Below are positions 56,903 to 61,057 of a stretch of 64,000 nt of DNA, in pieces. Both the position numbers and the translations under genes were made by a program. The stretch lies in the sequence record MW883059; one strand, 5' to 3'. Numbering within the stretch: the stretch's first letter is position 1; each line of letters opens with the position of its first letter. Source of the stretch: Escherichia phage vB_EcoM_SYGD1. The notes under the pieces are model-generated. The model was not told the origin of the DNA, made no database searches, and worked only from the letters and a program-made list of their open reading frames with translations.

Positions 56903-58208
56903 ATTTGCGACTCATGCTGAATATAATGATGAAGTAAATACACTTTTCAGCTCTAATGGACAAACGCCTTTTGTAACAATTACATTTGGTACGGGAACTG
57001 ACTGGACTGAACGAATGATTCAGAAAGCAATTCTGAAAAATCGTATTAAAGGTCTTGGTCGTGACGGGATAACTCCTATTTTCCCTAAACTTGTTATGTT
57101 CGTTGAAGAAGGTGTTAATCTTTATAAAGACGATCCGAACTATGATATTAAGCAGCTTGCTCTAGAGTGTGCAAGTAAAAGAATGTATCCTGACATCATT
57201 TCGGCTAAGAACAATAAAGCTATTACCGGTTCATCTATTCCTGTTTCTCCAATGGGTTGTCGTAGTTTCTTGAGTGTATGGAAAGATTCGACTGGTAATG
57301 AAATTCTTGATGGACGTAATAATCTTGGTGTTGTAACACTGAATCTTCCTCGTATTGCGTTAGATTCTTATATTGGAACACAGTTCAATGAACAGAAATT
57401 TGCCGAATTGTTCAATGAACGAATGGATTTATGTTTTGAAGCTTTGATGTGTAGAATCAGTTCCTTAAAAGGAGTTAAAGCGACTGTTGCTCCTATTCTT
57501 TATCAAGAAGGTGCATTCGGGGTTCGTCTTAAACCTGATGACGATATAATTGAGTTATTTAAAAACGGTAGAAGTTCAGTGTCCTTAGGATACATTGGTA
57601 TTCACGAATTGAATATTCTTGTCGGTCGTGATATTGGACAAGAAATTTTAACTAAAATGAATGCTCATCTTAAGCAGTGGACTGAAAGAACCGGTTTTGC
57701 TTTTAGCTTGTATTCTACTCCTGCGGAAAACCTGTGCTATCGCTTCTGTAAACTTGATACCGAAAAATATGGAAGTGTAAAGGATGTTACTGATAAAGGC
57801 TGGTACACTAATAGTTTCCATGTTTCAGTAGAAGAAAATATTACTCCGTTTGAAAAGATTTCTCGCGAAGCCCCATATCATTTCATTGCGACAGGTGGTC
57901 ACATTTCTTATGTTGAACTTCCTGATATGAAAAATAACCTAAAAGGTCTTGAGGCTGTATGGGATTATGCTGCACAACATTTAGATTATTTTGGTGTTAA
58001 TATGCCAGTAGATAAATGTTTTACGTGTGGAAGTACCCATGAAATGACTCCAACTGAAAACGGATTTGTTTGTTCTATTTGTGGAGAAACTGATCCTAAA
58101 AAGATGAACACAATAAGAAGAACATGCGGATATCTTGGAACTCCTAGCGTTGTTCCATGGAATTTAGGTAAAATGAAAGAAATGGTAAAACGAGTAAAAC
58201 ATGCATAG
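56898..58208 (+). CDS. nrdD: Anaerobic ribonucleotide reductase NrdD, exon 2 (5' boundary approximate)
   Basis: Zn ribbon CFTCGSTHEMTPTENGFVCSICGE and glycyl radical motif RRTCGYLG near C-terminus. Confidence 0.8.
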   Translation, partial: HEFATHAEYNDEVNTLFSSNGQTPFVTITFGTGTDWTERMIQKAILKNRIKGLGRDGITPIFPKLVMFVEEGVNLYKDDPNYDIKQLALECASKRMYPDIISAKNNKAITGSSIPVSPMGCRSFLSVWKDSTGNEILDGRNNLGVVTLNLPRIALDSYIGTQFNEQKFAELFNERMDLCFEALMCRISSLKGVKATVAPILYQEGAFGVRLKPDDDIIELFKNGRSSVSLGYIGIHELNILVGRDIGQEILTKMNAHLKQWTERTGFAFSLYSTPAENLCYRFCKLDTEKYGSVKDVTDKGWYTNSFHVSVEENITPFEKISREAPYHFIATGGHISYVELPDMKNNLKGLEAVWDYAAQHLDYFGVNMPVDKCFTCGSTHEMTPTENGFVCSICGETDPKKMNTIRRTCGYLGTPSVVPWNLGKMKEMVKRVKHA

Positions 58209-59031
58209 GTATTATATAATTTATAAAATAACAAATATAATTAATTCAAAGGAATATATCGGTGCGCATAGCACCGATAACATAAATGACGGTTATATGG
58301 GGTCAGGAACATTGATTCGTGCCGCTTTATTAAAATATGGTAGAAAAAATTTTAATAAAGAAATTTTACATGTTTTTGATAATGAAAAACAAATGTATGA
58401 TAAAGAAGCTGAACTTGTAACCGAAGAGTATTGTCTAAAAGAAAATACATATAATATTAAACCTGGTGGAAAAGGTGGAACTGCCTATGAACAGACACTT
58501 GAACATCGCCGCAAAAATAGTTTAGCAAATAAAGGTAAAAAGAGAACAGAAGAAACTAAAATAGCTATTTCACGTGCTTTAAAGAAATATAAACGTACGC
58601 CAGAGCATCAAGCAAATTTAAATAAAGCCGTAAGCATAGCTATGAAGCGAAAAGATGTTAGAAGTAAATTAGCTGGAGAGCGGTCTGAGAAAGATAAATT
58701 ATCTATATCAAACGGTGTTAAAAAATATTACAATTCTTTGAGTGAAGAAGAACGCGAACTTCATCGCAAGCGAATTATTGAAGGTAAAAAGAATTCTCCC
58801 ATGTCATTGGAATCTAGACAAAAGCTTTCAAAAGCTTTAAAAGGACTTCAAGTTGGTTCAAAAAATCCAATGTATGGAAAAATTTCTCCAACTAGCAAAA
58901 CCGTTTCAGTTGACGGTATTAAATATGATTCAATTAAAAAGTGCTCAAATGCCATAAAAGTTTCTAGACATCTTATACTAAAACGCTGTAATTCTACTGA
59001 TGAAGCTTGGAAAAATTGGATATTATTATGA
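58201..59031 (+). CDS. GIY-YIG homing endonuclease (seg-like) between nrdD and nrdG
   Basis: YYIIYKITNIINSKEYIGAHS...YMGSG; resembles the segB-like ORF at 30264. Confidence 0.7.
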   Translation: MHRYYIIYKITNIINSKEYIGAHSTDNINDGYMGSGTLIRAALLKYGRKNFNKEILHVFDNEKQMYDKEAELVTEEYCLKENTYNIKPGGKGGTAYEQTLEHRRKNSLANKGKKRTEETKIAISRALKKYKRTPEHQANLNKAVSIAMKRKDVRSKLAGERSEKDKLSISNGVKKYYNSLSEEERELHRKRIIEGKKNSPMSLESRQKLSKALKGLQVGSKNPMYGKISPTSKTVSVDGIKYDSIKKCSNAIKVSRHLILKRCNSTDEAWKNWILL

Positions 59032-59498
59032 ATTATGACAGAATATACCCGTGCTGCTTTGTTAATGGTCCTGGATGCAGGACAGTTCTTTTCGTTACAG
59101 GTTGTTTGCATAAATGCGAAGGGTGTTATAATAAATCAACATGGAATGCTAGAAATGGCGTTCCATTCACTGGTGAAACACTAGAACAATTAATTGAATG
59201 TTTGAATAATGATTATATAGAAGGATTAACTATAACTGGAGGAGACCCTCTTTATCCTGATAACCGAGATGATGTTCATTGCATTGTTCAAACGGTAAAA
59301 AATCTTTATCCAAATAAAAGCATTTGGTTGTGGACAGGGTACAAGTTTGAAGATATTAAACAACTAGAAATGCTTAAATATGTTGATGTTATTATTGATG
59401 GGAAGTATGAGAAAAATCTTCCGACCAAAAAGCTGTGGCGGGGTTCAGATAATCAGCGACTTTGGTCAAATACCGATGGGGTGTGGAAACATGATTAA
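59028..59498 (+). CDS. nrdG: Anaerobic RNR activating enzyme NrdG (radical SAM)
   Basis: CLHKCEGC radical-SAM cluster motif; 156 aa from MNYDRIY. Confidence 0.8.
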   Translation: MNYDRIYPCCFVNGPGCRTVLFVTGCLHKCEGCYNKSTWNARNGVPFTGETLEQLIECLNNDYIEGLTITGGDPLYPDNRDDVHCIVQTVKNLYPNKSIWLWTGYKFEDIKQLEMLKYVDVIIDGKYEKNLPTKKLWRGSDNQRLWSNTDGVWKHD

Positions 59499-59612: not shown

Positions 59613-59828
59613 ATGTATAAATTTCGTAAAGGTTTAGCTGATTTTCTTACAACTGTAACGTTCTTTTTGTTTATGGCAGTTGGTGCTATTTTTCTTATTC
59701 CTTTTATTGCTATATTTTTCGTGATTAGCTTAATTTCTCCAGAAAAAGGACTGTCTTCTAGCGAGTTCAATGAACGCCTGGATAAAATTACTAACAAACT
59801 GAATTCTGTTCTTGACAAAAAGGCTTAA
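59613..59828 (+). CDS. Small membrane protein, hypothetical
   Basis: ORF 59589-59828; start at MYKFRKG assumed. Confidence 0.35.
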   Translation: MYKFRKGLADFLTTVTFFLFMAVGAIFLIPFIAIFFVISLISPEKGLSSSEFNERLDKITNKLNSVLDKKA

Positions 59829-59830
59829 TT

Positions 59831-60142
59831 ATGATTAGTTTTGAGCGGTATGTGGTAGAGAGTTGGAAGGGTTTTGATATGTTCGGTAATGACTATTATT
59901 TCTATGAATGTAGTCTAAATCCTAGTTTTTGGGCTGGACGAGAACGAGAACTCGAAGAAATTAATAACCGTGCTGAATTGTTAGGTGAATTACCTACGGT
60001 TTATTTTACCTTTGATGCATCTGGATTTGTTATCCAGGTTTATTTTCCTGAAGAAAATTCTGGCGATGATTCTGTTAACCCGCCATACTGGGCTTATCAA
60101 GGAATTATTTCTCGTGGAACAAAACTCGAACTTAAAGAATAA
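59831..60142 (+). CDS. Hypothetical protein
   Basis: 103 aa. Confidence 0.4.
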   Translation: MISFERYVVESWKGFDMFGNDYYFYECSLNPSFWAGRERELEEINNRAELLGELPTVYFTFDASGFVIQVYFPEENSGDDSVNPPYWAYQGIISRGTKLELKE

Positions 60143-60143
60143 G

Positions 60144-60437
60144 ATTGAAGTCTATGGAATTCCAGATGAAGTAGGTCGTTGTCCTGGATGTCAATCAGTT
60201 ACAAAACTTCTAAAGGAGCTCAATGCTCCTTTTACTTTCTATAAAGTTCTTACAAATAATGGTAAGATTGAGTATGATCGTCCACTGATTGTATCTCTTG
60301 CTAAACGCGCTGGATTCACATCTCTTAACATTCGTTATCCAGTCATTTTCATCAATGATTCTAGACAAAAGAACATTAAACACTTCAAAGAAACTCTCAT
60401 TTCACTTGGATATGATAGAGATATCATAGAAGACTAA
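60144..60437 (+). CDS. Glutaredoxin/thioredoxin-fold protein (NrdH-like); start codon uncertain
   Basis: KIEVYGIPDEVGRCPGCQSVTKLLKEL has the beta-strand, CxxC, helix layout of glutaredoxins; no in-frame ATG near the fold start (ATT at 60144). Confidence 0.45.
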   Translation: MEVYGIPDEVGRCPGCQSVTKLLKELNAPFTFYKVLTNNGKIEYDRPLIVSLAKRAGFTSLNIRYPVIFINDSRQKNIKHFKETLISLGYDRDIIED

Positions 60438-60439
60438 GA

Positions 60440-60465
60440 CAGGCCCTCTGGGCCTTTCTTTCTCG
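60440..60465 (+). terminator. Rho-independent terminator
   Basis: aggccctctgggcct followed by T-rich run. Confidence 0.6.
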
Positions 60466-60534: not shown

Positions 60535-60564
60535 GTTTACAAGAAGTTCAAACTGTGGTATTAT
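60535..60564 (+). promoter_or_regulatory. T4-type early promoter
   Basis: tttcacaaagttGTTTAC ... tggtattat. Confidence 0.55.
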
Positions 60565-60763: not shown

Positions 60764-61057
60764 ATGGGTAAAACGTATCGTCGTAAAGACTTGAAAGTTC
60801 GTGATTATGACTATTTCGGAAAGCGTAAAGCTCCTGATGGTGTAAGTCATAAAGATATGGTTGAAAACATTTTTCGCTCTGATAAATGGCGTAGAATGAA
60901 AGGTATTGATTCAGAAGTTAAAGATGAGTTAAATCGTCAATTACGCGGTGAAGTAAGAAAGTTGAAAAAATCAGTTTACATTGACGATGATTTTGATTAT
61001 AATACTTCTCAACGAGTTGCTAAACGTAAATCAAACGAGTGTTATCGTTACAGCTGA
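60764..61057 (+). CDS. Hypothetical basic protein
   Basis: ORF 60719-61057; start at MGKTYRRK assumed. Confidence 0.35.
   Translation: MGKTYRRKDLKVRDYDYFGKRKAPDGVSHKDMVENIFRSDKWRRMKGIDSEVKDELNRQLRGEVRKLKKSVYIDDDFDYNTSQRVAKRKSNECYRYS

Follow-up and report, generated by a model that had tools for sequence, protein, structure and literature searches.

A gene whose conserved protein fold begins directly behind the stop codon of the preceding open reading frame (ORF), at a point where there is no ATG, raises the question of where its translation starts. Such a gene lies at positions 60114–60437 (+ strand) of the window, that is, of the whole 64,000-nucleotide stretch of Escherichia phage vB_EcoM_SYGD1 DNA (sequence record MW883059) that was analysed. 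The first-pass annotation had described it as a glutaredoxin-fold ORF without an ATG start, and the sequence bears out its account of the junction: the upstream ORF ends with TAA at 60140–60142, KIEVYG is read from 60141 in the +1 frame, and both an ATT at 60144–60146 and an in-frame GTG at 60114–60116 are present. Its list of start candidates was right in finding no ATG nearby and in naming GTG 60114 as one possibility, but it left unmentioned two further in-frame codons, ATG 60015 and GTG 59985. Non-canonical initiation, a recent start-codon loss and a sequence error had been offered as explanations. The reading favored here, with a probability of about 0.9, is that the gene starts at GTG 60114 and yields a protein of 107 residues.

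The window is a Tequatrovirus (T4-like) genome, and an 801-nt query around this locus matched 635 phage records, 12 of them at an identity of at least 99%. The features around the gene are as follows.

ending at 58208, + strand: nrdD (ORF list, profile searches)
58201–59031, + strand: free-standing GIY-YIG homing-endonuclease ORF between nrdD and nrdG (phrog_314)
about 59028–59498, + strand: nrdG
59613–59828, + strand: homologue of gp55.8, a small predicted membrane protein (phrog_1930; in T4, 55.8 is directly upstream of nrdH)
59831–60142, + strand: ORF of 103 aa, function unassigned (phrog_2749, E 1e-48), whose last 29 nt overlap the nrdH start
60114–60437, + strand: nrdH glutaredoxin-like gene, 107 codons plus TAA with a putative GTG start (ORF reading, Pfam, identity to T4 NrdH)
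60441–60465, + strand: intrinsic-terminator-like hairpin and T-run (AGGCCCTCTGGGCCT, then TTCTTTCT) just past the nrdH stop
downstream of nrdH, + strand: homologues of 55.6, 55.5 and others, then gp55 from about 62333

The GIY-YIG ORF overlaps the nrdD stop by 8 nt and is called 'segC-like' in phage Lv5cm; its place is taken in T4 by the HNH endonuclease mobC and is empty in P922 and Pu-Krd-SF4. A site resembling a T4 early-type promoter (TTTACA-17-TATTAT, 60536–60564) is found after the terminator-like hairpin, ahead of the 55.6 homologue.

Judged by its sequence, the 60114–60437 ORF is an orthologue of T4 nrdH, an ordinary glutaredoxin gene of a T4-like phage. Its frame is open to the TAA at 60435–60437, and its product, which includes the stretch KIEVYGIPDEVGRCPGCQ, is 98% identical to T4 NrdH over the 102 residues that the two share (alignment A1). 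Synteny with T4 nrdH holds as well, the gene being placed between nrdG/55.8 and 55.6-55 when the ORF order is compared with T4 and with the annotation of relatives, and P922, Lv5cm, Pu-Krd-SF4 and RB51 each annotate a 324-nt CDS from the GTG equivalent to 60114. Identity, synteny and start architecture together assign the window gene to the T4 nrdH group. The earlier recognition of a CxxC glutaredoxin/thioredoxin fold was sound: the protein matches the Pfam family PF00462 (Glutaredoxin) with 23.8 bits against a cut-off of 22.9 (E 5.3e-5) and phrog_22 'thioredoxin domain' at 5e-16, and the nearest solved structure is T4 glutaredoxin (1ABA/1AAZ), to which EVYG is aligned from residue 3 onward. 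These matches identify the protein as a member of the glutaredoxin/thioredoxin fold family. The CxxC motif is placed where beta-strand 1 ends and helix 1 starts, and neither of its cysteines varies among 14 homologues (alignment A1). The landmarks of the start region and of the beginning of the fold are:

60099–60103, + strand: Shine-Dalgarno (SD)-like AAGGA with a 10-nt spacer to the GTG; duplex with the anti-SD at -5.4 kcal/mol
60114–60116, + strand: putative GTG initiation codon, aligned with the annotated GTG start of T4 nrdH
60141–60158, + strand: KIEVYG, beta-strand 1, the conserved fold start (protein alignment A1; 1ABA/1AAZ alignment)
60144–60146, + strand: ATT, the Ile codon 11 and no start; nearly all homologues have Ile or Val at this residue
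60180–60191, + strand: CPGC redox motif (CxxC), residues 23–26, aligned with CVYC of T4 glutaredoxin 1AAZ

Translation from GTG 60114 would give (f)Met-EQNSNLKN followed by KIEVYG, so that the first nine residues would form a short, variable tail ahead of beta-strand 1 of the thioredoxin fold. Starts at GTG are commonplace in bacterial and phage genes. The statement that this codon has no good ribosome-binding site does not hold, since the AAGGA at 60099–60103, which would serve it as SD, lies at the same 10-nt spacing as the AAGGAA of two ATG-started ORFs in the window, at 60764 and 33869 (-6.0 and -6.1 kcal/mol), the former being the match of T4 55.5 in size and position. A 33-mer spanning the GTG was found by megablast in 410 phage records, its ATG variant in 0. 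The RNA fold of 60080–60160 is unremarkable, with a z-score of -0.38. Against the GTG count the rather long spacer of 10 nt and the fact that AAGGA and the surroundings of the GTG also lie in the coding frame of the upstream ORF, which confounds their conservation. A full-text search of the literature found no N-terminal sequencing, proteomics or initiation-site ribosome-profiling data on T4 NrdH. The GTG and the AAGGA are both situated within the last part of the 103-aa ORF ahead of nrdH, and hence translation of nrdH would probably also be coupled to that ORF. Such coupling appears likely beyond the window too, because the nrdH start overlaps the end of the preceding gene in every genus examined and, in T4, stands 2 nt after the preceding stop.

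The start regions of 17 GenBank phages of different genera and of 53 IMG/VR loci were compared, with all in-frame start candidates tabulated, while the DNA-level alignment of the start region covers a subset of the collected loci. In this alignment, GTG 60114 and the GTG of T4 nrdH share one column, which holds GTG in Tequatrovirus (RB51 and T4 types), Mosigvirus, Dhakavirus, Gaprivervirus and Kanagawavirus-like phages. The same column holds ATG in the Karamvirus phages Pet-CM3-4 and CC31 (MENSQLRAKIYG), and also in one contig, L061, which reads KELFP-M-DQKLT where its close relatives with GTG read KELFP-V-DQKLT. Such an interchange of GTG and ATG at a single column marks an initiation codon. 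In L061 (IMGVR_UViG_2974741249_000001, Dhakavirus-like, about 1180–1200), the ATG changes Cys to Tyr in the overlapping upstream frame. The base preceding the GTG varies among C, T and A, which gives Arg, Cys or Ser in the frame of the upstream ORF, and the GTG itself is unchanged; thus, the constraint acts on the GTG rather than on the overlapping frame. An SD-like element is retained at equal distance, as AAGGA(A/G) or AAGGTGG in Mosig-, Dhaka-, Gapriver- and Kanagawavirus and as GAGG in Karamvirus. The extension peptides of the different lineages, MEQNSNLKN, MKQN, MDQKLT, MENQSL and MENSQLRA, are recognisably similar even in Karamvirus, where nrdH overlaps another upstream gene, which is 55.8-like. 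In the Mosigvirus SSE1, a T-to-C change at the equivalent of 60140 is synonymous in nrdH (AAT to AAC) and abolishes the stop of the upstream ORF. Taken together, the conservation indicates that the short N-terminal extension peptide is translated.

More distant phages begin the protein otherwise. In Jiaoda-, Slopek-, Pseudoteven-, Gelderland-, Roskilde- and Biquartavirus and in Acinetobacter phages, an ATG stands 0 to 3 codons before (K)IEIYG, and in Winklervirus the nrdH start is TTG. Distant homologues that begin with ATG right at the fold start suggest that the N-terminal extension is dispensable for the fold, a point that weighs against the GTG reading. The annotated nrdH of phage JS98 (EF469154; L081 529–795) begins at an internal ATG (MRCPGC...) and would thereby lack beta-strand 1; as the conserved GTG with AAGGAG is found 17 codons upstream of this ATG, the annotated start is probably a misannotation.

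Initiation at the ATT itself, for instance by ribosomes that end at the TAA at 60140–60142 and restart one base downstream, would yield a protein of 97 residues with the N-terminal peptide MEVYGIPDEVGR. The position of this codon at the start of the fold and one base past the upstream stop speaks for such an AUU start, as does the ATG that distant homologues carry 0 to 1 codon ahead of the equivalent position. Nevertheless, we regard it as very improbable. The codon encodes the conserved Ile of beta-strand 1, which is aligned even in homologues that begin M-I-E-I-Y-G or M-K-I-E and thus possess an ATG of their own one or two codons before it, and the SD strength ahead of it, at -0.9 kcal/mol, is essentially nil, while the conserved GTG/ATG column with its SD lies 10 codons upstream. 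A restart is further opposed by the T4-type genomes, which lack the upstream ORF, and therefore a ribosome terminating there, and yet keep the GTG and its SD. It is likewise opposed by the variable position of the upstream stop, which falls two codons further downstream in Mosigvirus. In the 33-mer search, no relative carries ATG at the equivalent codon. The same search bears on the proposal that the genome has a sequencing error or a recent loss of ATG at 60144, which is suggested by the single substitution that separates ATT from ATG. By megablast, the 33-mer spanning the ATT occurs identically in 413 independent phage records, as against 0 for the ATG version; all seven IMG/VR contigs that match AAGATNGAAGTCTATGGAATTCC have ATT (7/7), and T4 nrdH likewise uses ATT for the Ile of KIEVYG. 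As the GTG start and the tail are common to Tequatro-, Mosig-, Dhaka-, Gapriver- and Kanagawavirus, they represent an old, clade-wide state, and an error or recent loss is about as improbable as any reading considered here. Equally remote is a start far upstream, at ATG 60015 or GTG 59985, which would give a protein of 140–150 aa (MHLDLLSRF... frame). The nrdH frame is indeed open back to about 59985 and offers the ATG at 60015, but the SD there is weak (-2.4 kcal/mol), the stretch lies entirely within the conserved upstream ORF in another frame, and no annotation uses such a start. In T4-type, Gaprivervirus and some Dhaka- and Kanagawavirus genomes, in-frame stops occur 3 to 17 codons before the fold. 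Both codons were rejected as starts, the frame being closed there in relatives.

The remaining question concerns the 103-aa ORF, which is annotated in RB51 as 'RB51ncORF079c, similar to RB69ORF082c'. In Mosig-, Dhaka-, Mosuguk-, Kanagawa- and Winklervirus, a homologue of it stands ahead of nrdH and overlaps with it. T4-, T2- and T6-type genomes are without it, and their similarity to the window starts at 60138. The T4 state is most simply explained by a deletion of this ORF, which apparently spared AAGGAAT and the GTG. An AlphaFold single-sequence model of its product has a mean pLDDT of 64, too poor for a fold search. It is of mild interest that nrdH always has a translational overlap with its upstream gene, which in six Tevenvirinae genera is this conserved ORF without assigned function.

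The overlap of the two ORFs in every genus that carries both could be taken to mean that a +1 ribosomal frameshift near the end of the upstream ORF joins the phrog_2749 protein to NrdH in a single fused product. In Pectobacterium phage PM2 (NC_028940; L046 907–1506 / L079 358–957), the upstream ORF and nrdH in fact form one ORF of 199 aa, annotated 'glutaredoxin'. According to the DNA alignment, the two frames are joined there by a single-base difference within an A7 run that directly follows the conserved GTG, as is typical of a homopolymer error, and of the 56 distinct records listed (543 in all cover both parts), PM2 alone has both parts in a single frame. As this case stands alone among the records listed, a homopolymer error is likely; the PM2 fusion is probably such an error or else a private mutation. 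Moreover, no recognisable slippery or stop-stimulated site is conserved, since the junction sequence varies and the upstream stop shifts between genera, the structure z-score of -0.38 reveals nothing unusual, and T4-type phages manage without the upstream ORF. A frameshift fusion is thus more doubtful still than the ATT start, though less so than an error or a far-upstream start. That any second product, be it the 97-residue protein from an AUU-60144 restart or a +1 fusion of phrog_2749 and NrdH, exists besides the GTG-started NrdH is judged to be very unlikely; if one did, it would tie the upstream phrog_2749 protein functionally to the glutaredoxin.

The GTG-initiated nrdH gene is already known from the T4 reference annotation, and the lack of an ATG reflects no error and no unusual biology. 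The biological weight of the result is accordingly small, and its practical value lies in annotation, for which the correct CDS would be 60114–60437. Calls from an internal ATG, as in JS98, or fused with the upstream ORF, as in PM2, are probably wrong.

Among known systems, genes initiated at AUU, such as E. coli infC, resemble the window gene only in that an ATT is found close to where the fold begins; in contrast to them, the ATT here has no SD and is an internal, conserved Ile codon. Bacterial NrdH-redoxins, such as E. coli NrdH, the reductant of class Ib ribonucleotide reductase, are similar in being small proteins with a glutaredoxin fold and a CxxC motif, in adjoining ribonucleotide reductase genes, and in gene name. 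Bacterial NrdH carries a CVQC motif, whereas the window protein has CPGC. In a scan of the window protein against NCBIfam, no NrdH model was matched, only the YruB-family model TIGR02196 at 16.1 bits against a cut-off of 88.55, and the window gene is not associated with nrdIEF, its neighbours being nrdD and nrdG, of class III. With no match to an NrdH model, a CPGC motif and class III neighbours, 'NrdH' is a historical gene name here. T4 glutaredoxin ('T4 thioredoxin', nrdC; 1AAZ, 1ABA) aligns over the beta1-CxxC-alpha1 region with an E of 5e-4, and the T4 record note calls NrdH 'related to T4 thioredoxin'. It is a distant paralogue, which has CVYC instead of CPGC and starts at a Met two residues before the strand, without an N-terminal tail.

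The closest counterparts are the nrdH genes of T4 and its relatives. T4 nrdH (NC_000866; NP_049686.1) is annotated as a 309-nt CDS from the GTG in AAGGAATAGTTGTGAAACAAAATAAGATTGAAGTC, giving (M)KQNKIEVYG, with AAGGA 6 nt before the GTG and an in-frame TAA three codons upstream of it, so that there is no other canonical nrdH start in T4. The computed mass of the 102-aa protein, 11.75 kDa, matches its Swiss-Prot name, taken here as quoted in the annotation of a relative, '11.8 kDa protein in Gp55-nrdG intergenic region', and the record note states that it 'has glutaredoxin activity'. With this gene the window gene shares the CPGC motif, the neighbours (nrdG and 55.8 upstream, 55.6 downstream), the terminator-like sequence, which is identical after T4 nrdH, and a GTG with AAGGA upstream. 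It differs in that its protein has five extra N-terminal codons (MEQNSNLKN vs MKQN), its start overlaps the 103-aa ORF absent from T4, T2 and T6, and its SD spacer measures 10 nt, against 6 nt in T4. At the nucleotide level, when window positions 60114–60143 are set beside T4 (L004 4586–4614), the RB51-type nrdH has 15 extra nt (CTCGAACTTAAAGAA) after GTGGAACAAAA and an SD spacer that is 4 nt longer. The RB51/RB69-type nrdH (RB51ORF078 with RB51ncORF079c) has the same arrangement as the window, with an identical start region and identical first 20 codons in a 324-nt CDS from the same GTG, and differs in that its upstream ORF departs from that of the window at several residues.
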